This document shows positions 11,908-63,899 of a stretch of 64,000 bases of DNA, one piece after another; the first letter of the stretch is position 1, and each line of letters opens with the position of its first letter. Below the pieces are notes generated by a model. The model ran no database searches and was not told the origin of the DNA. It worked only from the letters and a program-made list of their open reading frames with translations. The stretch comes from Deltaproteobacteria bacterium. Lineage in GTDB: Bacteria; Myxococcota_A; UBA9042; DTJE01. The translations under genes were made by a program, and so were the position numbers. The stretch lies in NCBI GenBank assembly GCA_029547805.1, contig JAKPOP010000010.1, positions 680,452-744,451 of the forward strand. The letters run 5' to 3'.

Positions 11908-11920
11908 TCCCACCCGGGAA

Positions 11921-11967
11921 CGAAGACCCGGGGCCGCCCCGGGCGTTGGAAAGCCCCGGGCTTTTTC
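11921..11967 (+). terminator. Candidate intrinsic terminator after ptb-buk (GC hairpin CCCGGGG-CCG-CCCCGGG, then AAAGCC-CCG-GGCTTTTT)
   Basis: Inverted repeats read directly. The second hairpin is followed by a T5 run about 55 nt downstream of the stop codon. Confidence 0.45.
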
Positions 11968-12007
11968 CGATAATGGGGGTCGCCTGTTGATCGGGAGAGG
12001 GAACGAC

Positions 12008-15943: not shown

Positions 15944-16055
15944 ACCCCCAGGCCTTCCGCCCTCCGTCGCGACGGAGCCCGGGGATCCCATGGGGGCGAC
16001 ACTCCTGGCAGGTGGCCCTTGCTCCAGCGGCCTTGCGACGCCAGCGAGCGGGCCG

Positions 16056-16084
16056 CTTGACGAGGCGCAGGCAGCCCCCCACAA
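16056..16084 (+). promoter_or_regulatory. Candidate sigma70-like promoter TTGACG-N17-CACAAT upstream of the MoxR/Bat operon
   Basis: Hexamers read directly about 75 nt upstream of moxR start 16158. SD CAAGGAGGTGG precedes the ATG. Confidence 0.35.
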
Positions 16085-16157
16085 TGCCCCCGCCGGGAAT
16101 AGGAATCGCGTCCAGGGGGTTCCGTGCCCGGTGGACCGGCAAGGAGGTGGGGTCGCC

Positions 16158-17147: not shown

Positions 17148-17178
17148 CCGGGGCCGGCTCCCGGAGACGGGGGATCCC

Positions 17179-19214: not shown

Positions 19215-19226
19215 GGGAGGGGCGAC

Positions 19227-20339: not shown

Positions 20340-20358
20340 GGAGCCCGGGGGCGGAGAG

Positions 20359-22848
20359 GTGCAGATGTGGCGCATCGAGGACATCCGCTGGGGCAACGGG
20401 GACTGGTGGCCTCTGCTGCTGCTTCCCCTGCTGCTGATCCCGCTCTACGTCGCCCTGGGGGTCTTCCGGCGTCGGGTGGAACGGGGCTTCAGCGGCCGTT
20501 CGCTGGTGCCGGCGATGCTCGAGGGGATGGCACCCTGGCGGCGCTTCCTGTCGGGCCTGGCGGTGATCCTGGCCCTGGAGGCCCTGACCGTCGCCTGCCT
20601 GCGGCCCCGCTGGGGCCTCAAGGAGGTGACGATCCAGGGTACCGGACTGGACGTCTGCCTGGTCCTCGACGCCAGCCGCTCAATGAAGACCCCCGACGTC
20701 TCCCCGGACCGCCTGACCGCCGCGACGGTGGAGATCTCGCGGTTGATGGAGGCTGCGCCGGGCCATCGGTGGGCGCTGGTGCCCTTTGCGGGACTCGCCT
20801 TCATCCAGAGTCCCTTGACGGTGGACACCGCGGTGGTCCGTCAGTACCTGGCCGACCTCCAGGTGACCGATATCCCGGTTCCGGGAACCGCCATCGGACG
20901 GGCCCTGGCCGTGGCCGCCTCGGCCCTTGGAGTGGACCGGGAGGACCCCACCGGCGCCGCGAAGGTGGTGGTCCTGTTCACCGACGGGGAGAACCACGAG
21001 GGGGACCCCCAGAAGGTCGCCGACGCCCTGAAAGAGAAGGGGGTGCGAATCTACACCGTCGGTGTCGGGACCCCCGCCGGACAGCCGCTGCCGATCCTGG
21101 ACGACCAGGGGGCCGTGACCGGCACCGCCCGTGAGGCCGACGGCACGACCCCGATCCTGTCGAAACTGAACGAGGACCTCCTCCGGGACATGGCCACTCG
21201 GACCGGGGGGACCTACCTCGCCCTCACGCCCGGATCCGACGTCGCCGGCGCCCTCGCCCAGGCCTTCCTGGGGCTCCAGAAGGCCGACTATCAGGCCCGG
21301 GTCTCCCGGCTGCTGGAGGAGCGCTACGGCTGGCCGCTCGGGGTGGCGCTGGTGCTCATGATGGTCCCCTTCCTGCTGGCTGGCGGAGCGGCCCGCCGGA
21401 AGGGGGCGCTGCTGCTGGTGGCGGGGTGGACCCTGGGTCTGGCGCCGTCACCCGCCACGGCCCGTCCGCTGGAGTGGCCAGGCTTCCTGCTCCGGGAGCA
21501 CCCGGACGTGCGGAAGGCCCGAAAGGACCTGGAGGAGGGACGCACCGCCGATGCGGTGCAGGCCCTGAAGGCCCTCACGGAGGAGATGCCGGGCCGGGCG
21601 GACCTCTGGTACGACCTGGCCCTGGCCCAGGAGGCGGCCGGGGACCTGGACCCGGCGATCGACAGCGCCCGGAAGGCCCTCGCAACGCTCCAGGCCGCCC
21701 GGCAGGTCCCCCGGGACTGGCCCTCGGAGGCCCGGATGCAGCACCTGTTGGGGACGCTGCTGGGGCGCAAGGCGATGGCCCGGTCCGAGGCCAAGGATCC
21801 CCCCCGCAAGGTCCGGGAGACCTGGCGGGAAGCGGTGGCGGCACTGACCCGGGCGGTGCTGCTGGACCCCTCCGCCCAGGACTCCCGTCGGAACCTGGAA
21901 CTGGCCTCCGACGCCGCCTGGCCCCCCTGCTCCCGGCTCGACGACTCCTACGAGCCGAACCCCGATGCGGCCCATGCCCAGTTCCTGCCCGTGGATCCGA
22001 ACACCCAGCAGGCCCGGGAGGACCTGTGGCTCTGCCCGGGGGACGAGGACTGGTTCCGGTTCCCGATGCGCGCCGGGGAGACGATCTTCGTGTCGGCGGT
22101 GGAGCCTCCCGAGGAGGGAGGGGGGGACGGAAACGGCGGAGGAGGCAACGGCAACCAGCCCTCGCCGGCCCGGGTGGACCTGACGATCCGATCGGCCGAC
22201 GGAACGGCCCTCTCCGCTCCGGGGAAGCAGGCCCGGTTCCGGGCCGACGGGCCAGACCCGGTGCTGGTCCAGGTGACGGGCCCCCGGGAGGAGGACGGCC
22301 TCCCCTACCGCCTGGAGGTCCGCCTGGTGCCGCCCTGCCCCGCCGGAGACGACGGGATGGAGCCCAACGACACCGAGGACCAGGCCCGGCCGGTGGAGGA
22401 CGGGGACCACGGCCTGCGGGCCTGCCCGGGCAACGAGGACTGGTTCCAGTACACCGAGAAGCAGGGCACCCGAAAGGACGTCTCGGTGTCCTGGGAGTCC
22501 GGCGAGGGCCCTCTGGAGGTGGAGGTTGTCAGCGCCGACGGCGCCCGGCTCGAGGTCGCCTCGGCGTCCCGGGAGGGTCGGGAGGTCCGCACCGCGAGCC
22601 TCCCGAAGGCGGAGCAGGAGGCCCCCTTCCGGATCCACGTCCGGTCCGGCCGGGGCGAGGCCTTCTACCAGTTGTCGATCCGGGACGGCAAGGGCGGCGG
22701 AAACGACTCGTCCCCGACGCCCCAGGCCGGATCCCAGGCCCTCCGGGACCTGCTTGAGTCCGTGGACCGGAACGAGCAGAATCTGGAGGCCCAGGAGGCG
22801 ACCCGGAAGTCCCCCTGGAAGGACCGGGTGCCCGACAAGGACTGGTAG
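20359..22848 (+). CDS. BatB/BatC-like fusion: TM + VWA domain + TPR region + C-terminal bacterial pre-peptidase-like beta domains
   Basis: 829 aa. VWA DASRSM...FTDGENH. TPR-like helices around LWYDLALAQEAAGDLDPAI. Two repeated C-terminal segments with CPGDEDWFRF / CPGNEDWFQY (PPC-like). Start is GTG 20359 or ATG 20365. Confidence 0.8.
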   Translation: MQMWRIEDIRWGNGDWWPLLLLPLLLIPLYVALGVFRRRVERGFSGRSLVPAMLEGMAPWRRFLSGLAVILALEALTVACLRPRWGLKEVTIQGTGLDVCLVLDASRSMKTPDVSPDRLTAATVEISRLMEAAPGHRWALVPFAGLAFIQSPLTVDTAVVRQYLADLQVTDIPVPGTAIGRALAVAASALGVDREDPTGAAKVVVLFTDGENHEGDPQKVADALKEKGVRIYTVGVGTPAGQPLPILDDQGAVTGTAREADGTTPILSKLNEDLLRDMATRTGGTYLALTPGSDVAGALAQAFLGLQKADYQARVSRLLEERYGWPLGVALVLMMVPFLLAGGAARRKGALLLVAGWTLGLAPSPATARPLEWPGFLLREHPDVRKARKDLEEGRTADAVQALKALTEEMPGRADLWYDLALAQEAAGDLDPAIDSARKALATLQAARQVPRDWPSEARMQHLLGTLLGRKAMARSEAKDPPRKVRETWREAVAALTRAVLLDPSAQDSRRNLELASDAAWPPCSRLDDSYEPNPDAAHAQFLPVDPNTQQAREDLWLCPGDEDWFRFPMRAGETIFVSAVEPPEEGGGDGNGGGGNGNQPSPARVDLTIRSADGTALSAPGKQARFRADGPDPVLVQVTGPREEDGLPYRLEVRLVPPCPAGDDGMEPNDTEDQARPVEDGDHGLRACPGNEDWFQYTEKQGTRKDVSVSWESGEGPLEVEVVSADGARLEVASASREGREVRTASLPKAEQEAPFRIHVRSGRGEAFYQLSIRDGKGGGNDSSPTPQAGSQALRDLLESVDRNEQNLEAQEATRKSPWKDRVPDKDW

Positions 22849-22863
22849 CGGCGGGGTGGGCCC

Positions 22864-24687
22864 ATGCGACGGACCTGGTGCCTGTGGGCAATCCTGGCCT
22901 GCCCGGTGCTGGCCCGGGCCCAGTCCGTCGAGGTGACCCTGGACCCGCCGACGATCACCCTGGAGGACACCGCGACCCTGACCGTGATCCTCGAGGGTTC
23001 CTTCGACGACGTCCGGGGGCCCGAGATGCCGGACCTTCAGGTGGTCGGGCGGTCCTCCGGGACCTCGGTGACGGTGATCAACGGCCGCATGAGCCAGCAG
23101 CAGCGCATCGTCCTGCGGATCGCCCCGCAGCGCACGGGGCAGCTCACCATCGGGCCCGTGCAACTGGTCCAGCGAGGACGGGTGATCGCCGAGTCCCGTC
23201 GGCTCACGCTCCGGGTCTTGCCCCGGGGATCCCCCCTGCCCGCGTCGCCCCCGAGCCCGGCGCCTCCGGCCCCTGGCAACGGGACGCCGGAGGCCGCCCC
23301 GGAGGAGCCCCAGGCCGATCCTCCCCGGGACGTCGGAGGCCGGTCGCCCGGTCGCGAGATCGGAAGGCCCGCCTTCCTGTGGGTTCGGACCCTGGACCGG
23401 CCGGTCTACCTGGGCGAGCCCATTCCGGTGGAGTATCTGCTCTACGTGCGGTCGGACTGGCCCCTCTCGGCCCTGTCGATGGACTCGAACCCGTCCCTTC
23501 GGGGCTTCGTGGCGGAGCAGGCCCAGACGGACCCCCAACAGGTGCGCCGGGAGCGCCCGGGGAACGGGCCCACCTACGACGTCCGGACCCTCTGGAAGGG
23601 TGCCGTGACCCCCCTGCAGGCGGGTCGGGTGGTGCTGGACCCCATGCGGGTGACATTGACGGTCGGGGACCTCTTCAGCCGTCGGCGCGTCCCCATCGCC
23701 TCAGATCCGGTGACCTTGACGGTGCTTCCGGTCCCCAAAGAGGGGCGGCCGGCGGACTGGGTCGAGGGCCTGGTGGGGACCTTCGGCCTCCGGGCCCGGG
23801 TCGATCGGCAGGCCCTCCAGGTCGGGGAGTCGGCGTTGCTGACCGTGGAGGTCACCGGCAGCGGAAACCTCGCCGCCCTGAAACCTCCCGATCTCCGGCT
23901 GCCAGATCGGGTTCGGGTGAGTCGGGTGCCCTCCCAGGACCTGGACGAGCGAGTGGTGGACCAGGCCGGGGTCTCGGGGCGCCGGACGTTCCAGTTCCTG
24001 CTGGCCCCAAGGGAACCAGGTGAGGTGGAGATCCCCCGGATCGACCTGGCCTTCTTCAACCCGGTGACCGGGAAGTTCGAGCGGGCCCGCACCGACCCGA
24101 TTCGCCTCCAGGTGACCGGGAGCGGCGACCGTCCGGACGCCGTGGCGAGGAGCCACGAGCCCCGGCTGATCCTGGTGGACCGTTTCCCCGAATCGCCGGC
24201 CCAGGACCTTCCCGTGGCTCCGTCCTCCGGCATTCCCTGGGGCCTCCTGGGATTCCCGGTGGCCCTCTGGGTCGGGCTCGAGGGCTGGGCATGGCGGAGG
24301 CGATCCCTGCAGCGGGATCCTCGGGCGGCGGTCCGACGAGCCGCCCTCCGAACGGCCCTTCGGGGACTGGCGGAGGCCCGGCGAGCCGACCTGCCACCCG
24401 CGGCATTCTGGGCCGCCCTGGAGACCCTCCTGCGGGACTTCCTGCGGGCCCGCCTGGACCTGCCGCCGGGACTGTCGCCCACGGAGGTGGCCCGATCCCT
24501 GGCCGAACGGGGCGTCCGGCCGCCCCTCGCAGCGGCGGTGCAGCAGGAACTGGAGGCCTGCGCCTTCGGCCGCTTCGCGCCCTCGGCGGTGCAGGACGGC
24601 GACCGACAGGCCGCCCTGGTCCGGGTGGAGCAGGCCCTGCGGGAACTGGACGCCGCCCGTCCCGATCGAGCGGGAGGACCCCGATGA
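22864..24687 (+). CDS. batD: BatD-like protein
   Basis: 607 aa with signal peptide MRRTWCLWAILACPVLARAQ. N-terminal beta-rich region, central Pro/Ala-rich linker, C-terminal TM plus cytoplasmic tail, as in BatD/oxygen-tolerance proteins. Confidence 0.8.
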   Translation: MRRTWCLWAILACPVLARAQSVEVTLDPPTITLEDTATLTVILEGSFDDVRGPEMPDLQVVGRSSGTSVTVINGRMSQQQRIVLRIAPQRTGQLTIGPVQLVQRGRVIAESRRLTLRVLPRGSPLPASPPSPAPPAPGNGTPEAAPEEPQADPPRDVGGRSPGREIGRPAFLWVRTLDRPVYLGEPIPVEYLLYVRSDWPLSALSMDSNPSLRGFVAEQAQTDPQQVRRERPGNGPTYDVRTLWKGAVTPLQAGRVVLDPMRVTLTVGDLFSRRRVPIASDPVTLTVLPVPKEGRPADWVEGLVGTFGLRARVDRQALQVGESALLTVEVTGSGNLAALKPPDLRLPDRVRVSRVPSQDLDERVVDQAGVSGRRTFQFLLAPREPGEVEIPRIDLAFFNPVTGKFERARTDPIRLQVTGSGDRPDAVARSHEPRLILVDRFPESPAQDLPVAPSSGIPWGLLGFPVALWVGLEGWAWRRRSLQRDPRAAVRRAALRTALRGLAEARRADLPPAAFWAALETLLRDFLRARLDLPPGLSPTEVARSLAERGVRPPLAAAVQQELEACAFGRFAPSAVQDGDRQAALVRVEQALRELDAARPDRAGGPR

Positions 24688-51023: not shown

Positions 51024-52433
51024 ATGACAAGCAGCCTCTACCGGTACCAGCAGGAAGGCGTCGCGTTCCTCGCTGACAGGAGATACGCCCTCTTGGCCGA
51101 TGAAATGGGCCTGGGCAAAACGGTCCAGGCCATCAAAGCGGCAGACGCCATCGGCGCCAGGCATATCCTGGTCGTCTGCCCGCTCTCCCTTGCTGCCAAC
51201 TGGCAGAAGGAAATCGAGAGGTGGTCCGACAACCCCCAGTCCGCCCTCTGCCGTCAACCGACGGACTTCACGTTCATGCGCCCGCGCTGGTCCATCGTGA
51301 ACTACGAAATGCTCAAGAAGGTCCCGCCGAATATCACTTACGACCTGATGATTCTCGACGAGGCCCACTACATCAAGAATCCCAAGTCACAACGCACGGT
51401 CGCGGTTTTTGGGAAGGACCGGAAGGGAGACCCGCCGTCCCTGTTCCAGCGATGCGCCCGCGTCTGGTTCCTGACAGGAACGCCTGTCCTCAACCGCCCC
51501 ATCGACCTCTGGCCGTTCGTTCATTTTGTCATGCGGCACCGCTCCTGGTGGTTCTACGTCCGGGACTTCTGCAATGCCAAGAAAACCCCGTTCGGCCTCG
51601 ACGTTTCCGGTGCCTCCAACACCGACCAACTTCATACCATGCTCAAACCCTACCTGCTTCGGCGCCGAAAGGCCGAGGTTCTCAAGGAACTCCCCCCGAA
51701 GGTCGTCCAGGTCTTGCCCCTGGAACCAGAACAGGCAATGTCCCGCCTGGCGTCCAGGCTTGCGTCCATCGTCGCCACGTCCGCGTCCGGAGCATTGCAG
51801 CGATACATCGACAGCGGCCTGGCTGGACCATTGCCACCGGGAACCGGGGAACTCGCCACCATCCGCCGGGAACTCGGCCTGGCCAAGGTCAAGCAGGTCA
51901 CGGAAATCGTCAACAACATTCTGGAATCAGAGCAGAAATGCGTCGTCTTCGCCATTCACAAGGACGTTGTGTCCCTTCTCCGGGATGCACTGAAACAACA
52001 TGGGGTAGTCACCATCACAGGGGATACCCCGGTGGAGGAACGCAACGTGGCGGTGGACAGGTTCCAGAACTCCAAGAACGTCCGCGTCATCATTGGTACC
52101 ATCGGCGCGATGGGTGTCGGCCTGACCCTGACCGCATCCTCCACCGTCGTCTTCGCAGAAATCGACTGGTCACCAGCCCTCATGCAGCAGGCAGAAGACC
52201 GCTGCCACCGCATCGGGCAGCAGAACGTCGTCTGCGTCCAACTACCCGTCGCCCCAGGCTCCATCGAGGAACGCATTGCCAGCCTCGTTGCCTGGAAATC
52301 ACGCGTGGCTGCTTGCATCGTCGATGGAGTGGAGCATGCCCAAACGCAGGGCGGTCCGAAGTGGACCCGATTTTTCAGACGGATATGGACCCGGCTTTTT
52401 GGGCAACGTGCCAAGAGAAACCCTCGTCCATGA
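51024..52433 (+). CDS. Compact SNF2-family helicase (phage-type: SNF2_N + Helicase_C only)
   Basis: 469 aa. YRYQQEGVAFL...LADEMGLGKTVQ (motif I). DEAH box MILDEAHYIKN. Helicase C motifs ...GVGLTLTASSTVVFAEIDWSPALMQQAEDRCHRIGQ. SD AGAAGGGGGAAG upstream. Codon usage and GC visibly lower than neighbouring genes. Confidence 0.85.
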   Translation: MTSSLYRYQQEGVAFLADRRYALLADEMGLGKTVQAIKAADAIGARHILVVCPLSLAANWQKEIERWSDNPQSALCRQPTDFTFMRPRWSIVNYEMLKKVPPNITYDLMILDEAHYIKNPKSQRTVAVFGKDRKGDPPSLFQRCARVWFLTGTPVLNRPIDLWPFVHFVMRHRSWWFYVRDFCNAKKTPFGLDVSGASNTDQLHTMLKPYLLRRRKAEVLKELPPKVVQVLPLEPEQAMSRLASRLASIVATSASGALQRYIDSGLAGPLPPGTGELATIRRELGLAKVKQVTEIVNNILESEQKCVVFAIHKDVVSLLRDALKQHGVVTITGDTPVEERNVAVDRFQNSKNVRVIIGTIGAMGVGLTLTASSTVVFAEIDWSPALMQQAEDRCHRIGQQNVVCVQLPVAPGSIEERIASLVAWKSRVAACIVDGVEHAQTQGGPKWTRFFRRIWTRLFGQRAKRNPRP

Positions 52434-53956: not shown

Positions 53957-56506
53957 TCACCGGGAGGACCGGGCCCGGGACGGAGGCCGGGACTCGTCGG
54001 GGACCGGCACGGATCGCCGGCGGCCCAGGACCAGCAGGAGGCCCAGGCCCAGGAGCCCCCACACACCCGAGGCCGTCCCTTCCGAGGCCGCGGTTCCGCA
54101 CCCGCTGGAAGTGCGTCGGCCACCAGGACCCACGTCCTCGCCGGCAGGGTCCCCCTGGGGCCCCGGCGTCTCGGCCACGGCATCCTGTCCAGGACCAGGC
54201 TCCCGCAGGTCCCGGGCCTCGCCGTCGGGTCCAGCCTCGCCTGCGTCCGATCCACCCGACAGGTCGGAGGGTCCCTGGTCGGGCAGGTCTACGGTCCCGA
54301 CGTCCGACGGGGTGTCGGGGGCCTCGGGACCGGGGGCCTCGGGGGTGGGTTCGGGGTCACAGGCCGGGTCATGGACGCCGACACAGAGGCCCCGGCCGTC
54401 GCAGGAATCCTCCCGGGTGCAGGGATCCCCGTCGTCGCACTCGGTGCCCTCCTCGGCGAAGGGGCTGGTGCAGGTCCCGGTCCCGGGGTCGCAGGTCCCG
54501 GCGACGTGGCAGGGCGAGGCCGGAAGACACATCACCAGATCCTCGCCCACACAGATCCCGTCCCGGCAGGCATCGGATCGGGTACAGGGGTTCCCGTCGT
54601 CGCACCCCGTCCCGTCGGTGGCCGGAGGATTCGTGCAGGTCCCGGTCGCCGGGTCGCACCGCCCGGCCACGTGGCACGCGTCCTGGGCCATGCACGTCAC
54701 CGGGTTCCCGCCGGTGCAGACCCCCGCCACACACCGGTCCGTCCGGGTGCAGGCATTCCCGTCGTCGCACCCCGTCCCGTCGGCCGCCGGGGTCTTCCGG
54801 CAGGTCCCATCCACGCAACTCTCCACCGTGCAGGGGTTCCCGTCGTCCGGGCACGCGCCACAATCGACGCACCCGTCGAACCCGCAGGATCCTGCATCAC
54901 AGGCCGCCCCGATCGTGCAGACCCGGAACGAGATCGTGGTTCCGGTAGCCCCGATGTCGAAGACGCGAATGCCTCCCGGGGCCCCTGACGACAGGAACGG
55001 ATAGGGGTTCCGGCCGGCGCTGAAGTCGGTCCGGCCGTAGTCCTGGGCCATCACCGCATTCTCGATGGTCCCCTCGGCAGAGGGCGTCCCGCCGGGCCGG
55101 AAGACATACACCTCGTCGGGCGGTCCCTCGGAGTTCCCCGACAGGGAGGGGTTGACGCGATAGGCCAGCAGGCCGGTCCCCGGCAGGGACGTCTCGTACG
55201 ACCCGGTCCGCCTTCGGTACTCCAGGAAGAAGTACTCGGTGGACGACCCGGGCGCCGCCACCAGCAGGTGGTTGTCCACGGGGCTGGTGACGTCGTTGAG
55301 GGTGAACCGCCCGCGCACCACTTGCCTGAGCGCCGGGATCCACCCGCCGTAGCGATACTTCATGTAGGCGCCCATGTGCTGGGGCGTCGGAAAGGTCCCC
55401 TCCATCAGGTCCCAGGGCCCCACCGGCGTCCGGCCATCCAGGCTGTAGTGATAGAGGTCCGGCGCGCCCAGCGTGTGGAACATCTCGTGGCACAGCACCC
55501 CCAGCTCGATCCAGGAGGACAGTTGGAGGTTGAAGTCCCACACCCGCTTGCCCCGAATGTCGGCCTCGTACAGGTAGAGGGACCACCGATGGGGCCACAG
55601 CAGTTCGGCCCAGGAACCGTAGGCCCCCTGGACCACCAGCACGACGCTGTCCACGTAGCCGTCGGCATCGGCGTCGATGTTCAGTTCCGCTGGGACCTGG
55701 CCGGCAATGGCGGTCACCGCCCGGGCCACCAGGGCCTGTTCCCGTTCGATCCGCTGGGAACCGTCAGCCCCCCCCTGGTAGCCACCCGGATTGAACCAGG
55801 GGTCGTAGGGCTCGTAGTAGGACCTCGGATAGGGGTCCTGGTAGGAGACGACGTACCCCCCGGAGGGCACCGGGAAGAAGGAGGACTGGATGGCCAGTTG
55901 CTGGTAGGAGACCTCCCGGAAGTAGGACCACATCGAGAGGCCAGGGCCGTTCATGAGCCCGTCATAGACCCCGATGGGCTGGCCGAACTCGGCCTGGTCG
56001 CTGAACCGGACGAAGACCACCAGATTGTTCAGGACCCCTCGACGGGGGGCGGGATTCAGCGGTGCGGGGGACAGGGATGGCGTCGTCGGGGTTCCGGAAT
56101 CCGGGGCCCGGGAGGGCGACGGGACCCGGGGTGGCCGGGGCACCGCGCCCAGCCAGGGGACCAGCGTCTGTGGCGCATCGGCGGCCTGCGGCGACAGTCC
56201 CATCCGCTCCGGGTCGGCCTGGCCGACGGCCAGCACTGTGGGGACCAGCCGCCCGCCCACCTCCGCCCCGTACACCCACCAGCCCGTCGGGTCCCGGACC
56301 ACGGTGAATCCCCGGGCGTCGTGGACCCGCTGGCGGTACTCGTCGCCGCTGACCAGGAGCCACCACTCGGTGCCGTCAGGCTGCACGACCCGGACCGGCC
56401 TGTCCCGCAGCGGCGCCCCTGCCGCCGGACCACCGGCGAGGACTCCCAGCAGCATCGCGACTGCCAGCCGTCGAAACCTGCCACCGATCCCCAACCACCG
56501 GGCCAT
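53957..56506 (-). CDS. M6-family (immune-inhibitor-A-like) zinc metalloprotease with C-terminal Cys-rich repeats and MYXO-CTERM-type tail
   Basis: Signal MARWLGIGGRFRRLAVAMLLGVLAGGPAAGA. HExxH CHEMFHTLG. Repeats CDDGNACTRTDRC... (same module as the gene at 12008). Tail ...SSGCGTAASEGTASGVWGLLGLGLLLVLGRRR, followed by 18 extra residues before the stop. Confidence 0.85.
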   Translation of the reverse strand: MARWLGIGGRFRRLAVAMLLGVLAGGPAAGAPLRDRPVRVVQPDGTEWWLLVSGDEYRQRVHDARGFTVVRDPTGWWVYGAEVGGRLVPTVLAVGQADPERMGLSPQAADAPQTLVPWLGAVPRPPRVPSPSRAPDSGTPTTPSLSPAPLNPAPRRGVLNNLVVFVRFSDQAEFGQPIGVYDGLMNGPGLSMWSYFREVSYQQLAIQSSFFPVPSGGYVVSYQDPYPRSYYEPYDPWFNPGGYQGGADGSQRIEREQALVARAVTAIAGQVPAELNIDADADGYVDSVVLVVQGAYGSWAELLWPHRWSLYLYEADIRGKRVWDFNLQLSSWIELGVLCHEMFHTLGAPDLYHYSLDGRTPVGPWDLMEGTFPTPQHMGAYMKYRYGGWIPALRQVVRGRFTLNDVTSPVDNHLLVAAPGSSTEYFFLEYRRRTGSYETSLPGTGLLAYRVNPSLSGNSEGPPDEVYVFRPGGTPSAEGTIENAVMAQDYGRTDFSAGRNPYPFLSSGAPGGIRVFDIGATGTTISFRVCTIGAACDAGSCGFDGCVDCGACPDDGNPCTVESCVDGTCRKTPAADGTGCDDGNACTRTDRCVAGVCTGGNPVTCMAQDACHVAGRCDPATGTCTNPPATDGTGCDDGNPCTRSDACRDGICVGEDLVMCLPASPCHVAGTCDPGTGTCTSPFAEEGTECDDGDPCTREDSCDGRGLCVGVHDPACDPEPTPEAPGPEAPDTPSDVGTVDLPDQGPSDLSGGSDAGEAGPDGEARDLREPGPGQDAVAETPGPQGDPAGEDVGPGGRRTSSGCGTAASEGTASGVWGLLGLGLLLVLGRRRSVPVPDESRPPSRARSSR

Positions 56507-56626: not shown

Positions 56627-58387
56627 TCATCGCCCGCAGTTACGACCGGGACCATCGTCGAACACCTGGGGGTCGGCCCCGCCGGGGACCGGGGTCGAGG
56701 ACTCGGGGGCGGCGATGCTCCAGGCCTCCCCGACCAGCAGCATGTTGTCCAGGGGATAACTGGACAGGAAGGTCTTCAGGAATCGGAGCGAGTAGCCCCC
56801 GATCAGGACGTCGCACTCCTCGGGAATCCCGTCGGGGTCCACCTGGGGGGGATCGCCCCCGCAGGGGGGCATCGTCCCGGAGGATCCCGGCATGCAGCCG
56901 GAGATTGCCCCGCGGCAGTATTCGCCAACCAGGATGCCGTCCAGATCGTCCAGGGCCTTCCGCCCGGTGGCGTGGATCTCCAGCAGGCCCTCGGCCACCT
57001 GCGGCACTCCCCCCGAGTCGTCGAACCGGGCCTGCAGGGTCAGTTCCTGGACCTCCAGGCGGACATGCCATGCCGGGTCCAGCGGAACGCCCAGCAGGGC
57101 CCGCAGCAGGGGCGCCAGGTCCATCTCCATCCGGGTCGGCCCTCCCGTGGCGCAGGGGCCGTCCATCTGGACCGGGAAGTCCACGCAGGACACCTCGTCC
57201 AGGGAACCGTAGTAGTCCCCCTGCCGCCGGGCGAAGGTCATCCGGCCCTCGAAGCGACGGGTCCCGGGATCCCAGGAGTCCAGCCGGAACACGAAGGGCA
57301 TGTCGTCCAGGCCGTCCCCCTCGAAGCCCGTCAGGCCCGGGAGGTTCGTGGAGATGGTCCCCAGGTGCAGGACCTGGACCGTGCCGACGGCCGCGGAGGG
57401 GTCCTCCAGGGGCTCCCCGGCCGGGTCGCACCGAAATTCCGGGAGGCTCCCGAAGGGGATCTCCGACTCGTTGACGATGGTGAGACGACGGGCCTCGGGG
57501 TCGAACTCCACCAGGTAGTAGAACACCCCCGAGGGGTCCACGTTGCGCACCAGGTAGTAGGGAAGCCCGCAGAAGGTCCCCTTCCAGAAGCCGTGGAGAT
57601 GGCCGGCGAAGACCCCCTGGAACACGCCCGGGTGATCGGTGATGACCTGGCACAGGGTGTCCTCGCCGCCGCTGGCCAGTTCCTCGGTGGGGGGATGATG
57701 GAAGAAGAGGATCGTGGGCATCCCATCGGCCACCTGGGTCCGCAGCCAGGCCAGTTGCGCACCGGTGAAGGACCCCACCAGGCCGCTGGACGAGAGCCAC
57801 TGGCTGCCCGCCATCGAGTTCATCATCACGAGGCGCACCCCGTCCTGGACCACCGCGTCGTCCAGGTCCCTGCCCAGCACCGAGGACAGCCACGCATCCC
57901 GGGCCGCCTTGTCGGCGGTGATCCGAAGCATCTCGTCCCGGTAGTACTCGTGGTTGCCGACCCCGATGTGGACCGGCCACTTCAGGCCCCCGAGCGTCCG
58001 GATCGCGATCCGGAAGGTGGACTCGTCCTCTGGCTGGAGGTCGTCGGAGAGGTAGTCCACCAGGTCGCCGGTGACGACGACCAGGTCTGCCGGGAAATCG
58101 ATCCCGTTCAGGTGATCCACCGCCTTCACGACGTGGGCCGGGTCCGGGTGGGCCGCGTCGCCCCAGACATGGACGTCCGAGATGTGGATGAACCGCAGCA
58201 CCCGCGGTGGCGAAGCGACCTCTGGTGCCTCATCCCACCCATCGGTCCCGGCGGCCATGTCGTCCAGCGAGATGTCCCGCCCCGAGTCGGTGAGGCCCCC
58301 GTCCTCGGCCAGGTCCCTGCCGCCGTCACCCCCGGGATCGACGTCCCGGACGTCTGCATCGCCCGGAGACCCTCCCCCCCCCTCCAC
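56627..58387 (-). CDS. Calcineurin-like metallophosphoesterase, probably a lipoprotein whose signal peptide lies in another frame upstream of a G9 homopolymer
   Basis: Motifs HISDVH, VTGDLVD, GNHE, HHP, GHLHG. The annotated frame begins at GTG 58387 with a Gly/Asp-rich linker. An ATG at about 58430 in the adjacent frame encodes MKRGIPILACLVLACGGGG (signal + lipobox) and runs into the G-run. Confidence 0.75.
   Translation of the reverse strand: MEGGGGSPGDADVRDVDPGGDGGRDLAEDGGLTDSGRDISLDDMAAGTDGWDEAPEVASPPRVLRFIHISDVHVWGDAAHPDPAHVVKAVDHLNGIDFPADLVVVTGDLVDYLSDDLQPEDESTFRIAIRTLGGLKWPVHIGVGNHEYYRDEMLRITADKAARDAWLSSVLGRDLDDAVVQDGVRLVMMNSMAGSQWLSSSGLVGSFTGAQLAWLRTQVADGMPTILFFHHPPTEELASGGEDTLCQVITDHPGVFQGVFAGHLHGFWKGTFCGLPYYLVRNVDPSGVFYYLVEFDPEARRLTIVNESEIPFGSLPEFRCDPAGEPLEDPSAAVGTVQVLHLGTISTNLPGLTGFEGDGLDDMPFVFRLDSWDPGTRRFEGRMTFARRQGDYYGSLDEVSCVDFPVQMDGPCATGGPTRMEMDLAPLLRALLGVPLDPAWHVRLEVQELTLQARFDDSGGVPQVAEGLLEIHATGRKALDDLDGILVGEYCRGAISGCMPGSSGTMPPCGGDPPQVDPDGIPEECDVLIGGYSLRFLKTFLSSYPLDNMLLVGEAWSIAAPESSTPVPGGADPQVFDDGPGRNCGR
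58372..58381 (-). repeat. Homopolymeric G9 (C9 on top strand) tract at the signal-peptide/mature-domain junction of the metallophosphoesterase gene
   Basis: Read directly. The track translations of both overlapping frames (..LACGGGGRVSG.. and MEGGGGSPGD..) require a nine-G run. Removing one G fuses the lipoprotein signal to the enzyme body in frame. Confidence 0.7.
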
Positions 58388-58558: not shown

Positions 58559-59437
58559 CTAGGGAGCGAGGATGCGTCCTGGGGCGCCGTTTCGCCCCTC
58601 CCGGGTATGGCAGTCCATGCAGTTCATGTTGTCCTGGGGGGTGGCCATCATCCGCTCCCGGCCGCCCAGGGCGAGTCGGACGGTGTAGGGCCGGGCGGGC
58701 TGGAAGGCCCCGGAGGCCATGAAGTTCCCCGAGGCATTGGTCACAAACGTCGTGCGGCTGCCGTTGGCGTCGGTGATCTCGACGGTCACGCCGGAAACCC
58801 CGAGGCAGTCGTCCACGTCCCGGAGGGCGCCCATCACGGTCCCGGCCATCGGGAACAGGGGGGCATCGTCTTCGCCCGCGGCCCGCTGCTGCTGGTGGCA
58901 GGCGATGCAGTTCCGGCCGGGATGCATCTCGGGCTTCCCGTCGTCCCCCTTCAGCCAGTAGGCCCCCGAGGAACAGGCCACCTCGGGGACCTCGGGACCC
59001 GTGTCCACACCCCCCGGGTCCCCGCCGGCCGGCAGGTCGTCGCCACCGGGAACCGGGGGACAGTCGGCCTTGCCGTCGGCGATCCACTGGGCCACGGTCC
59101 GGACGTCCCCCGGAGGCACCGAACCACCCGGGGGCATGCTCCCGGCCTGCATCCGGGCCAGGCCCCGGTCGGCATTGGCCGATGCCAGCGCGTAGGTGTC
59201 GTAGTCCACCCCCGCCGGGGCGCCACTCCGGGCCGCGCCGCTCCGGGTGCTGGCATGGCACCCGGTGCACCACCGCTCCAGGACCGGCCGGACGTCCCGG
59301 CACCACGAGACGACGGTCCCCGCCGGCAGGTCCGGCGCCGGGGCCAGATCGATGGCCCGCACCGGGTCGATCTTCTGGCCGCAGGCCCAGAGGCCCAGCA
59401 TCGCTGCGCACATCACCACCAGGCGATTCCGATCCAT
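58559..59437 (-). CDS. Triheme c-type cytochrome lipoprotein with an embedded CarboxypepD_reg-like beta-sandwich
   Basis: Signal + lipobox MDRNRLVVMCAAMLGLWACGQ. Three CxxCH motifs (CTGCH, CIACH, CMDCH). Segment VTVEITDANGSRTTFVTNASGNF between hemes 2 and 3. Confidence 0.8.
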   Translation of the reverse strand: MDRNRLVVMCAAMLGLWACGQKIDPVRAIDLAPAPDLPAGTVVSWCRDVRPVLERWCTGCHASTRSGAARSGAPAGVDYDTYALASANADRGLARMQAGSMPPGGSVPPGDVRTVAQWIADGKADCPPVPGGDDLPAGGDPGGVDTGPEVPEVACSSGAYWLKGDDGKPEMHPGRNCIACHQQQRAAGEDDAPLFPMAGTVMGALRDVDDCLGVSGVTVEITDANGSRTTFVTNASGNFMASGAFQPARPYTVRLALGGRERMMATPQDNMNCMDCHTREGRNGAPGRILAP

Positions 59438-59456
59438 GGTTCTCCTCCTGGCCGGC

Positions 59457-59861
59457 TCAGTCGTCCAGCGTCAGGATCACCCGGTCCCCGTCCAGTTGGG
59501 CCGGAATGGTCTTCAGGGGCCTCGGGGCGGGGCCCTCCAGCACCGTGCCGTCCAGCCCGAACCCCGAGGCATGACACGGGCATCGGACCTTCTTCGCCGC
59601 CGCGTCCCACTGGACGATGCACTCCTGGTGCGTGCAGACCGGGTGGAGGGCCTTCACGGTGGTCTCCGAGTCCCGGACCACCAGGACCTGCCGGTCCTTG
59701 AGCCGGAGCAGCGTCCCCTGCCCCACGGTCTTGAGCGCCTCGGCCTTGTCCAGCCCCACCGCCACCTTCTTCGCCAGCGCCGGCCGGACCGGCAGCAAGG
59801 TCGCCGTGACCCCCGCCGCCGCCCCGATGGCCAGCCCCTTCAGGAACTCTCGCCGTTTCAT
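59457..59861 (-). CDS. Tat-exported Rieske [2Fe-2S] protein
   Basis: Start at MKRREFLKGLAIGAAAGVTA (twin-arginine motif, M176 of the track ORF). Rieske boxes CTHQEC and CPCHAS. 134 aa. Confidence 0.85.
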   Translation of the reverse strand: MKRREFLKGLAIGAAAGVTATLLPVRPALAKKVAVGLDKAEALKTVGQGTLLRLKDRQVLVVRDSETTVKALHPVCTHQECIVQWDAAAKKVRCPCHASGFGLDGTVLEGPAPRPLKTIPAQLDGDRVILTLDD

Positions 59862-59899
59862 GACCGCCTCCTGCTTCTTGCCACCAGGTTCCTCGCCCC

Positions 59900-60823
59900 C
59901 TACCGCCGTCCCAGGCCCCACTCCCGGACCACCTGGAACCCGACGATCAGCCTCTTGTAGTCCCGCGAACTGTTGGCCACCACCCCGTCGGCCCCGATGT
60001 ACTGGGTGTTGCTGAGCACCAGCGCAAAGACGTGCCGCGGGGTCAGAAATTTCACCGCCGACGAGAAGGAGGGCCACTTCGCCCCGTAGCCGGCGACCCG
60101 GAAGGAGGCCTCGACGTTCCAGGCCAGCCAGGGCAGGATCCGGACCTCCACCGCCCCGGGAACCGCCAGAGACCAGTTCGTGTCGGCGGTGCTCTTCACG
60201 TCGCTGGAGGAGTCGCTGTGGAACAGCAGGCCCGTGCCCAGGGTCAGGCGCTTCCAGAGGGTCCCGCTGACCAGCAGCTGGCCGAACCCCCCGACGGCGT
60301 CCCGGGCATGGCGCTGGCTGAACCACGACAGGCCCCCGCGAACCGCCAGGTCCAGATAATGCCGTTCCTGTCGCAGGAAGCACCACTTCGCGTCGAACTG
60401 GTAGGTGTCGAAGGCGTCGGTGGCGTTGCTCATCCGGTAAACCCCGACGTCCAGGCCATCCAGGATGCCGAACCGCAGCCCCAGGCCGACCCGGAGCCCG
60501 CCGCCGTCGAACCCGAACAGGTCATGCCAGGTGTCCTTGTTGAAGGCCGGTGAGAAGGTCCGGTGGTCCACCACCAGCACGAGGGCCATCTTCCGGACGG
60601 TCCGGGCCCACATCAGGTTCACGGCCCGGTCCATCTGGACGACCTGGGAGGGGTCCCAGCGGGGGTCCTCCTGGACCACCTCCACCTCCTCCACCTCCTC
60701 GACGGGCTCCTCGACACTGGCGGAGCCCTGGCTGCCGGGGGCCCCGGTCTCCCCCAGCGCGACGCCCGACCATGCGATGAGAATGGGCAGCAGCCACCAC
60801 GCGACCACGGTCCGCGCCGGCAT
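59900..60823 (-). CDS. Secreted hypothetical protein, beta-rich, possible outer-membrane protein, with an acidic N-terminal EEV repeat
   Basis: Signal MPARTVVAWWLLPILIAWSGVALG. EEPVEEVEEVEVVQED linker. Alternating hydrophobic pattern through the C-terminal 230 aa. No terminal aromatic residue, so the OMP assignment is tentative. Confidence 0.55.
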   Translation of the reverse strand: MPARTVVAWWLLPILIAWSGVALGETGAPGSQGSASVEEPVEEVEEVEVVQEDPRWDPSQVVQMDRAVNLMWARTVRKMALVLVVDHRTFSPAFNKDTWHDLFGFDGGGLRVGLGLRFGILDGLDVGVYRMSNATDAFDTYQFDAKWCFLRQERHYLDLAVRGGLSWFSQRHARDAVGGFGQLLVSGTLWKRLTLGTGLLFHSDSSSDVKSTADTNWSLAVPGAVEVRILPWLAWNVEASFRVAGYGAKWPSFSSAVKFLTPRHVFALVLSNTQYIGADGVVANSSRDYKRLIVGFQVVREWGLGRR

Positions 60824-60958
60824 CGGTCACCTCCCCCGACCATTTCTGCGAGGCTTGAGGGAAGGATACTCCGGGCATGACGCCACGGGCAAGGACTTTT
60901 GGACTTTTCGGAGAAGGCTTCTCTGGGTATCATCGGACGTCCCTGGAGGGAGTCATCG

Positions 60959-61411
60959 ATGCGTGCCCAGACGTGCCTGACGCTGCTGCTGGTCCCCTCG
61001 GCCCTGGCCTGCTACGACACGGGTCCCCTGATGCGCCCCGGCGAGAACTGCATGGGGTGCCACACCGGCGGCCGGGCGCCCCGGTGGGAGGTCGCCGGCA
61101 CGGTCTTCGAGTGCGCCCAGGCCGATCGCCACGAGGGGGTGGCCGGCGTGGACGTGGTGTTCCGGGACGCGAACGGCACCGAGGTGCTGCGCCTGACGAC
61201 CAACGAGGCCGGCAACTTCTACTCGAAGACGGACCTGCCCGAGGGATACCGGGTCTCCCTGGTCCGGGGCGAGACGGTGCGGGAGATGCCCTTCACGCCC
61301 ACCAAGGGGGCCTGCAACTCGTGTCACACCATGCCGCCGGAGAACGGGGCCCCGGGGCGGCTGTACATCGGGACCATCCCGTGCAGCGCTCCGGCCCCGT
61401 CGGACTCCTGA
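60959..61411 (+). CDS. Diheme c-type cytochrome lipoprotein, paralogous to the 58559..59437 cytochrome
   Basis: Start at MRAQTCLTLLLVPSALAC (lipobox, M21 of the track ORF). SD GGAGGGA upstream. CMGCH and CNSCH. Same inter-heme CarboxypepD_reg-like segment (VDVVFRDANGTEVLRLTTNEAGNF). Confidence 0.75.
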   Translation: MRAQTCLTLLLVPSALACYDTGPLMRPGENCMGCHTGGRAPRWEVAGTVFECAQADRHEGVAGVDVVFRDANGTEVLRLTTNEAGNFYSKTDLPEGYRVSLVRGETVREMPFTPTKGACNSCHTMPPENGAPGRLYIGTIPCSAPAPSDS

Positions 61412-61577: not shown

Positions 61578-63899
61578 ATGAACGACCGGCAACCACAGTT
61601 CATGATGGACGACTCGGTCCCCTGGACCGAACCCCTCTGGGTCGCCCTGGACCGCAGTGGCCGGATCCTGCGGCGGACGGGACGTCTCGACGACCTCCTG
61701 CGAACAGGGACCCCGATCGAGACGCTGGCCGACCTCCCCGTCCCTGCGGAGGAACGGGCCTGTCTCCACCGGGAACTGGGCCATGTCTTCCAGGGGGAGC
61801 CCACCGCCCCGGTGACGCTGCACGTCCGGGTCGGGGACGCCCAGGAGCGATGCGTGGAGGCCCGTTTCTGCCCCTGGATTGTCGCCGATCCCGTTCCGAC
61901 CGCGGCGTACCTCTTCCGGTCCATCGACCGCCTCGTCGCCACGCAGCGACAACTGGAGGACTTGGCGGAGAAGTTCCGGATGATGACCGAGGCCTCGGGT
62001 GACGTGATCTGGATGAGCGAGCCCACCCACCGGATGACCTACATCTCGCCCGCCATCGTGCCCCACCTGGGATTCACGCCCGAGGAGTACATGGCGTTGC
62101 CCCCGGAGGGACGGTTCCCGCCGGAGGAGTTGCGGATGCTCGCAGACGCCTTCCGGCGGGAGTATCAGGTTGCCCGGCAGAAGGCGGCCCGGGGCGAGCG
62201 ACATTCCTACGTGCTGGAACTGCGCCACTATCACAAGGACGGATCGCTGCGGTGGGGAGAGGTCCACGTCGGGTTCCTGTTCGACCGGGACGGGAGGCTG
62301 ACGGGCCTCCAGGGGATCACCCGCAACATCCATGCCCGGAAGCATGCCGAGGAGGCCCTCGCCCGGAGCGAGGAGCACTACCGCCGCCTCTTCGAGGAGC
62401 ATCGACTCGGCCTGGCCGTCTGCGAGGTGATCCGGAACGACCAGGGCGTTCCCGTCGATGCACGGTATCTCCAGGTGAACCCGGCCTACCAGGTCCACGT
62501 GGGCCTGGACCCCCAGGCGGTGATCGGCCGGAAGGCCTCGGAGATCTTCACTCCCGAGGAACTCTCGCGGGGGCTGGCGACGTTGGAGAAGGTCCTGTCG
62601 GGGGTCACCTGCCGGGAGGACACCTACCTCCCCTCCCTGGACCGGTGGTTCGACGCGACCACCTGGGCCCTCTCACCAGACCGCTACGTCGTGATGGTCG
62701 AGGACATCACCCAGCGCCGGCGACTGGAGCAGACCGCGGAGCGGGCTCACCGGCTGGAGTCCCTGGGGGTCCTGGCCGGTGGCATCGCCCATGACTTCAA
62801 CAACCTGCTGACCGGCATCCTGGGCAGCCTGTCCCTGATCGCGATGGAGACCGCCCACCTGGACCCCGTGGCGGACCTGGTACGCACGGCACGGGAGGCC
62901 TGCGACCGGGCCCAGGGACTCACGCGCCAGTTGCTGGCCTTCAGCCGGGGCGGCGAGCCCGTCCGGGAACGGGCGGACCTGGGGCGGCTGATCCAGCAGG
63001 CAGCCGGTTTCGCGCTGGCAGGAACCGGGGTGTCCTGCGACTACCGGTTCCCCGGCCAGCCCGTCTTCACGGCGGTGGACGCCGGGCAGATCGGCCAGGT
63101 GATCCAGAACCTGGTGATCAATGCCGTCCAGGCCATGGAGGGCCACGGTCGCCTGGTGATCCGGATGGAGCCGACCGGGAGCCCCAGGACCGTCCCCCAG
63201 GGCCTCGGCCCCGGACCCCGGGTCCGGATCGATGTCGAGGACTCGGGGCCTGGCATCGCGCCGGAGCACCTCTCGCGGATCTTCGAGCCCTACTACACGA
63301 CCCGCGCCGACGGCACGGGACTGGGACTGGCCATCGCCTTCCGGATTGTGCAGCGCCACGGGGGCACGCTGACCGTCGAGTCCCGACCGGGCCAGGGGGC
63401 CTGCTTCTCGATCTGGCTCCCCGGCGAGGACCAGGGTCCCGCATCCCGGCCCGTCGCCCCGGCAGGCACGCCTCCAGGGGCGACCCTCTCCCGGAAGGTG
63501 CTGGTGCTGGAGGACCACCCGTCGGTGCAGCGGATGATCCGGGCCATGCTGGAGCGGATGGGACACCGGGTGGACCTCTTCGAGGACGGGGACCAGGCCA
63601 TTGCCGCCTGGCGGGAGGCCCGTGCCCGGGGAGCCCCCTACGACCTGGGCATCCTGGACCTCGTCGTGCCGGGCCGCACCGGAGGCCGAGAGACGGCCGC
63701 GGCCATCCTCCAGGACGACCCCGAGGCGTGCCTGGTGGTGAGCAGCGGCTACTCCCAGGACGGCGTGCTGGCCGACCACGACCGCCACGGGTTTCGAGAC
63801 CGCTTGCCAAAGCCCTTTCACTACGATACGGTCCGAGCCTTGATGGACCGCCTGTTTCCCCGTGTCCCGTCGGATGCGGACGCCGGAGAGAACCCCTGA
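61578..63899 (+). CDS. Hybrid sensor histidine kinase (PAS/PAC sensor domains + HisKA + HATPase_c + receiver)
   Basis: 773 aa. H-box GGIAHDFNNLL. G-boxes DSGPGIA / GTGLGLA. REC VLVLEDHP...D...K. Two PAS-like regions. Confidence 0.85.
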   Translation: MNDRQPQFMMDDSVPWTEPLWVALDRSGRILRRTGRLDDLLRTGTPIETLADLPVPAEERACLHRELGHVFQGEPTAPVTLHVRVGDAQERCVEARFCPWIVADPVPTAAYLFRSIDRLVATQRQLEDLAEKFRMMTEASGDVIWMSEPTHRMTYISPAIVPHLGFTPEEYMALPPEGRFPPEELRMLADAFRREYQVARQKAARGERHSYVLELRHYHKDGSLRWGEVHVGFLFDRDGRLTGLQGITRNIHARKHAEEALARSEEHYRRLFEEHRLGLAVCEVIRNDQGVPVDARYLQVNPAYQVHVGLDPQAVIGRKASEIFTPEELSRGLATLEKVLSGVTCREDTYLPSLDRWFDATTWALSPDRYVVMVEDITQRRRLEQTAERAHRLESLGVLAGGIAHDFNNLLTGILGSLSLIAMETAHLDPVADLVRTAREACDRAQGLTRQLLAFSRGGEPVRERADLGRLIQQAAGFALAGTGVSCDYRFPGQPVFTAVDAGQIGQVIQNLVINAVQAMEGHGRLVIRMEPTGSPRTVPQGLGPGPRVRIDVEDSGPGIAPEHLSRIFEPYYTTRADGTGLGLAIAFRIVQRHGGTLTVESRPGQGACFSIWLPGEDQGPASRPVAPAGTPPGATLSRKVLVLEDHPSVQRMIRAMLERMGHRVDLFEDGDQAIAAWREARARGAPYDLGILDLVVPGRTGGRETAAAILQDDPEACLVVSSGYSQDGVLADHDRHGFRDRLPKPFHYDTVRALMDRLFPRVPSDADAGENP

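Follow-up and report, generated by a model that had tools for sequence, protein, structure and literature searches.

What does a secreted Rieske protein do when its gene lies between those of a presumed outer-membrane (OM) protein and a multihaem cytochrome, with no cytochrome b at hand? The question is raised by a four-gene cluster in a 64,000-nucleotide stretch of a Deltaproteobacteria bacterium genome (GenBank assembly GCA_029547805.1, contig JAKPOP010000010.1, positions 680,452 to 744,451), which we refer to as the window. The original prediction, made from the letters of the DNA, listed an OM-like protein, a Rieske protein exported by twin-arginine translocation (Tat), a trihaem cytochrome lipoprotein and a divergently transcribed dihaem paralogue, and read them as a conduit carrying electrons from the periplasm to the cell surface. 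Here, we report that the barrel-Rieske-cytochrome gene set is conserved and previously undescribed, and that it belongs to uncultured Myxococcota. Judged from gene neighbourhoods, the conserved unit is an OM barrel plus a Rieske protein, with or without a monohaem cytochrome and a DUF2231 protein. Gene models, export signals, barrel fold, Rieske type, cytochrome domains, linkage and fusions were computed directly.

A conserved pair of OM barrel and Rieske protein

The 307-amino acid (aa) protein, originally called OM-like, matches the Pfam family DUF5777 (PF19089, "membrane bound beta barrel") with 65.6 bits (cutoff 23.1), and the match extends over positions 5-247 of the 247-position profile. 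AlphaFold2 modeling with a 44-sequence alignment gave a transmembrane barrel of twelve strands with a predicted local distance difference test (pLDDT) of 89.8. Comparison values for this barrel were 16.9 for KdgM, 16.6 for FapF, 16.1 for NanC and about 15 for autotransporter beta-domains, followed by the COG4313 channel (14.5), LpxR (14.3), OMPLA (11.1) and PcoB (10.5). According to the model, the protein is an OM barrel and not a soluble protein, and it belongs to the small 12-strand class, like the KdgM, NanC and autotransporter barrels. Conserved across the DUF5777 family are H87-R88, R117, R130, D144, E238, H264, R300, several glycines and the long extracellular loops 1 and 6; nearly all of the conserved strand residues (Arg, Asp, Glu, His and Gly) are on the polar, lumen-facing side as assigned by a register heuristic. 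No mention of DUF5777 or PF19089 was found in a literature search.

The Rieske protein and its export route were borne out by two profiles above their cutoffs, i.e., Pfam Rieske (6.4e-14, 52.1 bits, cutoff 20.3) and the Tat signal profile TIGR01409 of NCBIfam (23.1 bits, cutoff 16.7), the twin arginines being R3R4; the Pfam TAT_signal profile scored 19.8, just under its cutoff of 22.7. The cluster-binding boxes are C76-T-H78-Q-E-C81 and C94-P-C96-H97-A-S (CTHQEC / CPCHAS). In the Rieske proteins of bc1/b6f complexes and of arsenite oxidase two extra cysteines form a disulfide; both of these are present here together with the box-II Ser, and Phe takes the place of the bc1 Tyr. A probable signal peptidase I site (PALA30 / KK) would release a soluble domain of about 100 aa. 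The best relative in the PDB is PetC of the b6f complex (4e-17), and others are Rieske chains of 110-117 aa without a membrane-anchor segment (8hn2, 9rk3, 9rk4, 5cxm); the window protein resembles the bc1/b6f subunits and the anchorless chains in its CTHxxC / CPCHxS boxes and its disulfide cysteines.

This likeness to bc1/b6f Rieske proteins is what could be said for a fragment of a cytochrome bc1/b6f or arsenite oxidase-type complex whose other subunits are encoded elsewhere. However, all four NCBIfam equivalogs of bc1/b6f failed by a wide margin (68.1 vs 154, 64 vs 250, 45.1 vs 97.4 and 31.8 vs 275), and AioB, the small subunit of arsenite oxidase, scored 26.9 vs 95.65, with no adjacent molybdopterin subunit in the window. 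Unlike the bc1/b6f subunits, the protein has a mature domain of only about 100 aa and a cleavable-looking Tat signal, lacks an anchor and has no cytochrome b neighbor. A Pfam sweep of 35 open reading frames (ORFs) upheld the absence of cytochrome b, oxidase and molybdoenzyme noted from the sequence of the window, and found no cytochrome c1 there. None of the Pfam-annotated homologous neighborhoods contains a cytochrome b, cytochrome c1, molybdopterin subunit or oxidase; cytochrome b, bc-type or oxidase neighbors had been named in advance as the mark of an ordinary bc fragment. We give this explanation hardly any weight. A soluble periplasmic Rieske protein serving as a mobile carrier outside bc-type complexes would, if so, be an unusual use of the fold; a literature search for soluble Rieske proteins found nothing relevant.

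Conservation of the neighborhood was the other test named beforehand. We pooled the loci on Pfam-annotated contigs with 25 loci from scanning 185,579 species genomes and with those of a tblastn census, which gave 34 distinct DUF5777 loci. Their carriers are mostly Myxococcota/Polyangia and include an Acidobacteriota and a Gemmatimonadales genome, and almost all barrel homologues come from metagenome-assembled genomes (MAGs) and metagenomes. A Rieske gene follows the barrel gene at a distance of 24-183 nt on the same strand in 26/34 loci, and since the pair recurs in so many independent loci, the adjacency is not due to chance. A monohaem lipoprotein cytochrome, homologous to the N-terminal domain of the trihaem protein, is found in 21/34 loci, usually just upstream of the barrel; a DUF2231 protein with four transmembrane (TM) helices is encoded in 13/34, after the Rieske gene where there is one; and at least one of these three partners is present in 31/34. 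One locus (L035) holds the full set of trihaem, DUF5777, Rieske and DUF2231 genes. In another (L033, 8001-9377), tblastn hits the DUF5777 gene in two segments and a single ORF joins it to the Rieske gene; this reflects either an error of assembly or a pseudogene with a frameshift.

The lack of a membrane partner for the Rieske protein is a peculiarity of the lineage of the window, where no DUF2231 gene was found, and does not extend to the 13 loci with DUF2231. Four TM helices are predicted for the module-associated DUF2231 proteins (PF09990), in which three histidines are invariant (HPxxVH in TM1 and HRN before TM3); the positive-inside rule would put these at the periplasmic face. Sequence and profile searches found no PDB relative of DUF2231, and the literature search returned an unrelated mention only. 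DUF2231 is the obvious candidate to close the chain at the inner membrane, possibly as a haem b or metal site.

A side observation concerns the residues directly after the signal peptides, where barrel and DUF2231 proteins alike carry an acidic motif, [VI]-E-[EQ]-[VI]-[EDG]-x-[VP]-[EQ]-V, as in EEVEEVEVV. Searched for with a strict regular expression, it occurs in 17/31 barrels and 9/11 DUF2231 proteins and in none of the 49 partners of Rieske or cytochrome type; the DUF2231 loci concerned are L004, L008, L014-L016, L020, L021, L026, L027, L032, L035 and L038. The motif co-varies per genome, IEQIDNPQVF being paired with VEQLGDVQTV in L015, L016 and L020. A shared docking strand is one possible role, a cation-binding tail another.

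Partners of the barrel vary in the wider DUF5777 family, for which an exhaustive profile search (E <= 1e-3) gave 943 cluster representatives at 50% identity. Among 139 newly listed, more distant representatives, nine carry an N-terminal extension with CXXCH on the same polypeptide as the barrel. These extensions fall into three or more sequence types; profiles of cytochrome c families in Pfam (Cytochrom_C, PSCyt1, Cytochrome_CBB3) recognize P0229 and P0277 above the curated cutoff and P0271 below it, the other six being counted by the CXXCH motif alone. The fused proteins are 385-427 aa long with CXXCH at about residue 40-45. In L039 (3858-5501) a distant DUF5777 gene is translationally coupled to a cupredoxin gene, followed by a 134-aa Tat lipoprotein with three HxH motifs (HGH, HTH, HSH) that looks like a metal-binding protein in the place of Rieske. 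In L028 (7944-9848, Myxococcales) a cation diffusion facilitator efflux gene (Cation_efflux 2e-42, plus ZT_dimer) lies 40 nt downstream of a DUF5777 gene that has neither the acidic motif nor redox partners. Both the fusions and the alternative partners speak for a physical association of the barrel with small one-electron proteins of the periplasm, and they also hint at metal cations as its cargo.

The haem domains of P0263, P0270, P0290 and P0295 begin with xPEFL[AE]x[FY]...C..CH, which reads MPEFLARF in P0290, for example. There is a loose similarity to the AXPXFAR[QK][TY] motif of Cyc2; the spacing to CXXCH is about 10 aa vs 5 aa, and these proteins fall outside the Cyc2 definition. A distant link of the fused DUF5777 proteins to Cyc2 is possible.

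Barrels can also be enzymes, as LpxQ, LpxR and OMPLA are, and the Rieske protein and cytochrome could be the reductase chain of an electron-consuming OM enzyme or receptor. We regard this as improbable, because the barrel shows no cofactor-binding motif and the conservation of H202 in its HSDSS does not extend to distant members of the family, and the N-terminal (periplasmic) cytochrome c fusions fit electron exchange at the periplasmic mouth equally well.

Cytochromes and the dihaem sandwich family

The trihaem protein has three CXXCH motifs (C57, C177 and C273). Its probable lipobox (LWAC19) is atypical in the Trp at -2, and its lipoprotein-like N-terminus, C-G-[EDQ]-K-x-D-P, is shared with the monohaem partners of 11 other loci. 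The N-terminal haem domain is helical, matches Pfam Cytochrome_CBB3 over aa 51-119 (32.2 bits, cutoff 27) and is the equivalent of the separate monohaem lipoprotein in other loci; Met101 (M101-P-P) is its putative haem ligand. The C-terminal domain runs in the order M171...C177xxC180H181, a sandwich (198-263) and M264...C273xxC276H277. AlphaFold2 modeled it with a pLDDT of 84-98 and placed a six-strand beta-sandwich between the CXXCH motifs, whose structural neighbors are transthyretin/CarboxypepD-like domains only; Pfam CarboxypepD_reg scored 20.4 and 15 bits, below its cutoff of 32.3. Sequence and profile searches of the PDB returned nothing for the trihaem protein or its dihaem domain, which agrees with the remark that the architecture was not recognizable as a described family.

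The product of the divergent gene has two CXXCH motifs and lacks the conserved Cys pair of the dihaem family, and its signal, ...SALAC18, can be read equally as a lipobox or as an AxA signal peptidase I site. It shares 37.6% identity over 125 aa (E 3e-14) with the C-terminal half of the trihaem protein, and the relationship is visible at the DNA level as a 50-nt inverted repeat, so that the two cytochromes are indeed paralogues with a beta-sandwich between their haem motifs. A 75% identical dihaem orthologue occupies the same position in L006. In a 40-sequence alignment of the dihaem family, the invariant features are the two CXXCH motifs, M171 and M264, and a C-terminal GR..P within APGRI(L/V)AP. 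Each of the two Met residues lies a few residues N-terminal to a CXXCH, and because there is no further invariant His, the parsimonious reading is that both haems are probably His/Met-ligated.

The dihaem sandwich family is widespread in soil, rhizosphere and wetland metagenomes (53 loci, L040-L092, besides L036 and L037). A typical member is a stand-alone lipoprotein of ~270 aa, often a monohaem plus dihaem fusion, without a named relative. Neither DUF5777 nor Rieske is found near 52 of the 53 metagenomic copies, and no conserved neighbors of stand-alone dihaem cytochromes were found in these 53 loci: the only recurrent "family" next to them is antisense ORF noise, and a Ser/Thr kinase occurs in 5/53. 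Dihaem sandwich and DUF5777 meet only in the window, in its near-orthologues L006 and L040, and in L035. The dihaem cytochromes thus drop out of the conserved unit to which they had been assigned, and the sandwich domain is a lineage-specific add-on outside the core module. For the trihaem gene, the best reading is that a member of an independent dihaem family has replaced the monohaem lipoprotein of the module or been fused to it. In L037, a stand-alone dihaem homologue adjoins MtrC/MtrF-like multihaem cytochromes and a DUF2231 gene.

Direction of electron flow and comparison with known systems

How could these parts work together? Our tentative reading, in which we place somewhat less than even confidence, is a split Cyc2/FoxE-like model where a small reductant is oxidized at the barrel and electrons move inward. 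What passes or binds the barrel would be a small solute with redox activity, a metal cation such as Fe2+ being the most plausible one, and a c-type cytochrome at or in the periplasmic mouth of the barrel would oxidize it. The electron would then travel via high-potential one-electron carriers, from His/Met haems to the soluble Tat-exported Rieske protein, and in most relatives the chain may end at DUF2231 in the inner membrane. In the window lineage, which is without DUF2231, the fused dihaem domain and the second dihaem paralogue presumably carry electrons to a respiratory acceptor encoded elsewhere. Please note that here we infer that barrel and cytochrome are physically coupled, which ligands and potentials the haems have, which way electrons flow, what the substrate is and what DUF2231 does.

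The direction is what separates this model from the conduit originally proposed, in which electrons leave the periplasm through the OM for acceptors that are insoluble or outside the cell, like those of MtrCAB, PioAB/MtoAB and Geobacter Pcc. Its parts list is fitting (barrel, periplasmic carrier and lipoprotein cytochromes), the L037 dihaem homologue has MtrC/MtrF-like and DUF2231 neighbors, and the ext cluster of Geobacter also combines a porin, cytochromes, a 14-kDa Rieske protein and a cytochrome b (PMC5877670). However, twelve strands are too few for a barrel to house a folded cytochrome (there are 26 in the known conduits and 16 in Cyc2), most loci offer a single haem, and no surface-exposed multihaem partner is present; with twelve strands and one haem, the barrel cannot sheathe its cytochrome as MtrB/PioB or Cyc2 do. 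The carriers, moreover, look high-potential (two invariant Met for two haems, the Met of MPP and a disulfide-type Rieske protein), unlike the bis-His, low-potential chains that reduce oxides, and this signature favors inward flow over an outward metal oxide-reducing conduit. The periplasm-to-surface conduit is, in our view, improbable.

Among known systems, MtrAB/PioAB/MtoAB and the Geobacter Pcc (OmaB-OmbB-OmcB) resemble the module in having an operon of an OM barrel with periplasmic or lipoprotein c-type cytochromes. They differ in that their barrels, of 20-26 strands, sheathe bis-His cytochromes of 8-10 haems, whereas the window has 12 strands, 1-3 haems per protein with probable His/Met ligation and a Rieske protein, and no decahaem or octahaem gene. 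The analogy to PioABC/MtoAB/Cyc2 drawn at the outset can therefore be kept only in part: PioAB/MtoAB, with 26 strands round a decahaem cytochrome vs 12 here, fall away, and Cyc2 remains in logic, its defining features being absent from the window.

Cyc2/Cyt572, the Fe(II) oxidases of Acidithiobacillus, Zetaproteobacteria, Gallionellaceae and Leptospirillum, come closest in logic, with an OM barrel and a single c-type haem domain at the N-terminal, periplasmic side; some DUF5777 branches are fused in the same order at a similar total length (P0271, P0277, P0290). In the Cyc2 model (PMC8406198), Fe2+ must enter the barrel at whose periplasmic mouth the monohaem domain sits; the pore takes up the substrate, and carriers in the periplasm take over the electron. 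Taking the defining features of Cyc2 from the same paper, we note several differences. Cyc2 has 16-17 strands vs 12 and is a fused protein of at least 365 aa, whereas the window barrel of 307 aa is without CXXCH and the cytochrome is a separate gene; AXPXFAR[Q/K][T/Y] stands 5 aa before CXXCH and PXL 4 aa after it in Cyc2, where the window reads VRPVLERW-CTGCH-ASTRSG; and neither Rieske nor DUF2231 partners are reported for Cyc2. For the cytochromes, FoxE (the periplasmic dihaem Fe(II) oxidase of Rhodobacter ferrooxidans SW2) and PccH (a monohaem cytochrome of Geobacter electron uptake) are among the closest systems; haem II of FoxE has a Met-before-CXXCH arrangement (PMC10654088), which matches the Met placement of the dihaem family. 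By analogy we favor placing the module among barrel-coupled envelope redox systems of Cyc2/FoxE-type logic, not with the MtrAB-type wire.

In its parts the module comes closest to extHIJKL-MNOPQS of Geobacter sulfurreducens, the sole described cluster found by us in which a porin-like protein and c-type cytochromes go with a Rieske protein and a membrane partner that are both small (ExtI porin, ExtO 14-kDa Rieske, ExtP cytochrome b, ExtS lipoprotein cytochrome; PMC5877670). The ext cluster differs in its 4-12-haem cytochromes and in having a genuine cytochrome b instead of DUF2231, and Rieske is the only family in common.

Metal trafficking or detoxification would give the barrel the part of a PcoB/CopB-like OM metal channel, with the redox proteins shifting the valence of Cu, Fe or Mn for export or import much as PcoA changes the valence of Cu(I). 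PcoAB/CopAB do pair a Tat-exported redox protein with a 12-strand barrel, but the redox protein there is a multicopper oxidase, the tails of PcoB are Met/His-rich vs Glu/Val-rich in the window, and there is no sequence relationship. The window proteins lack Met/His-rich metal-binding tracts, no P-type ATPase, RND, CopC or CopD occurs in the window or in the Pfam-annotated neighborhoods, PcoB matches the barrel less well than sugar-acid porins and autotransporter barrels, and to adjust valences by means of a Rieske protein plus as many as five haems is costly. We consider this explanation unlikely.

Several points weigh against the inward model that we prefer. The charge of the barrel lumen is balanced (7 acidic, 8 basic and 2 His residues by the register heuristic), which is unlike the strongly electronegative funnel described for Cyt572 or what is expected of a cation channel. 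The N-terminal segment aa 54-79, confidently modeled with a pLDDT of 83-97, could plug the lumen. The window encodes no inner-membrane partner and no terminal oxidase, the metal hints come from single loci (L028 and L039), and the His/Met assignment and the potentials are drawn from conservation. All module-bearing genomes are MAGs, and our literature search found no experimental work on any DUF5777 or DUF2231 protein.

A broader proposal, which we hold to be rather doubtful, is that DUF5777 may be a second family of cytochrome-coupled OM barrels beside Cyc2, forming a complete trans-envelope pathway of high-potential electron uptake. With the same reserve, it might be fused in some phyla and split in Myxococcota, Acidobacteriota and Gemmatimonadota, there extended by Rieske and DUF2231. 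Surveys of iron oxidation and electron uptake rest on few markers (Cyc2, MtoAB/PioAB, FoxE), so that a process such as neutrophilic Fe(II) oxidation by this route, if real, would be overlooked entirely by marker-gene surveys such as FeGenie. It would then mean an unsuspected redox capability in Myxococcota, Acidobacteriota and Gemmatimonadota of soil, fen, groundwater and digesters, and roles for two domains of unknown function, DUF5777 and DUF2231. Both the cytochrome-barrel fusions and the dihaem sandwich cytochromes encoded by single genes are of a size that permits direct expression and testing.

Gene layout and the surrounding window

Direct reading of the sequence placed the four ORFs exactly where the original prediction had them and upheld their tight spacing, with gaps of 38 nt between barrel and Rieske genes and 19 nt between Rieske and cytochrome genes. 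Shine-Dalgarno sequences (AGGAGG/GGAGG) lie 6-8 nt 5' of all four proposed start codons, reading AGGAGG for the Rieske gene and GGAGGGAG for the dihaem gene; it is because of the position of the latter that ATG 60959 is preferred over a longer ORF starting with TTG at 60899. The features are listed in Table 1.

Table 1. Positions of the module genes and their parts in the window
Feature	Positions	Strand	Extent	Remarks
DUF5777 OM barrel, 12-stranded in the model	59900..60823	-	307 aa	Sec signal aa 1-24, barrel aa 80-303
Acidic alternating motif EEPVEEVEEVEVVQE of the barrel protein	60671-60709 for aa 38-50	-	aa 38-52	conserved
Small Tat-exported Rieske [2Fe-2S] protein	59457..59861	-	134 aa
Trihaem cytochrome	58559..59437	-	292 aa
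Signal peptide and probable lipobox L-W-A-C19 of the trihaem protein	59381..59437	-		read from sequence; lipoprotein N-terminus follows
Monohaem class-I cytochrome c domain	59063..59320	-	aa 40-125	C57xxC60H61, Met101 in MPPGG
Disordered Pro/Gly/Asp linker	58982..59062	-	aa 126-152	AlphaFold2 pLDDT <50 for residues 128-152
Dihaem domain round a probably transthyretin-like sandwich	58559..58981	-	aa 153-292 + stop	C-terminal APGRILAP
Divergent intergenic region, barrel operon / dihaem gene	60824..60958		135 bp	presumed promoter region, by position only
Dihaem cytochrome	60959..61411	+	150 aa	divergently transcribed paralogue

A scan for the sigma-70 consensus found no promoter in the 56-62 kb region; the single terminator-like site there lies inside a gene, and such sites were no better than in shuffled sequence. 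Rfam had no match anywhere in the window. In a gene call filtered by G+C content at third codon positions (GC3), CXXCH occurs within the 64-kb window in the two cytochrome genes only. What the Pfam sweep did turn up includes kinases, peptidases, a BatA-D/MoxR operon and genes for the cell wall. A Myxococcota MAG from a sludge digester (GCA_017994695.1) has 93-97% protein identity to the window.

The cluster is flanked by genes for a 586-aa calcineurin-like phosphoesterase (Metallophos, 56627-58387) and a PAS-HisKA-receiver hybrid kinase (61578-63899). Both were considered as parts of the module and rejected, since they have no counterpart in the other annotated loci beyond L006 (a 93% orthologue), where the Metallophos gene is syntenic and the flanking kinase only domain-equivalent. 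They may serve lineage-specific regulation outside the conserved module.

Farther away, an 849-aa secreted metalloprotease (HEMFH; 53957-56506), with no Pfam match at 1e-5, ends in a long Cys-rich array of the repeat "C..DG..CT..D.C..G.C", and a 776-aa protein (11831-14161) has six Dictyostelium-type CTDC cysteine repeats (Pfam 1e-70). The segment 50500-52500, with a G+C content of 0.60 vs 0.71 window-wide, overlaps an SNF2-family helicase gene (51024-52433) and may have been acquired horizontally. The gene row MoxR AAA - DUF58 - VWA - VWA - BatD at 15849-24687 is a Bacteroides aerotolerance-like (Bat) operon.

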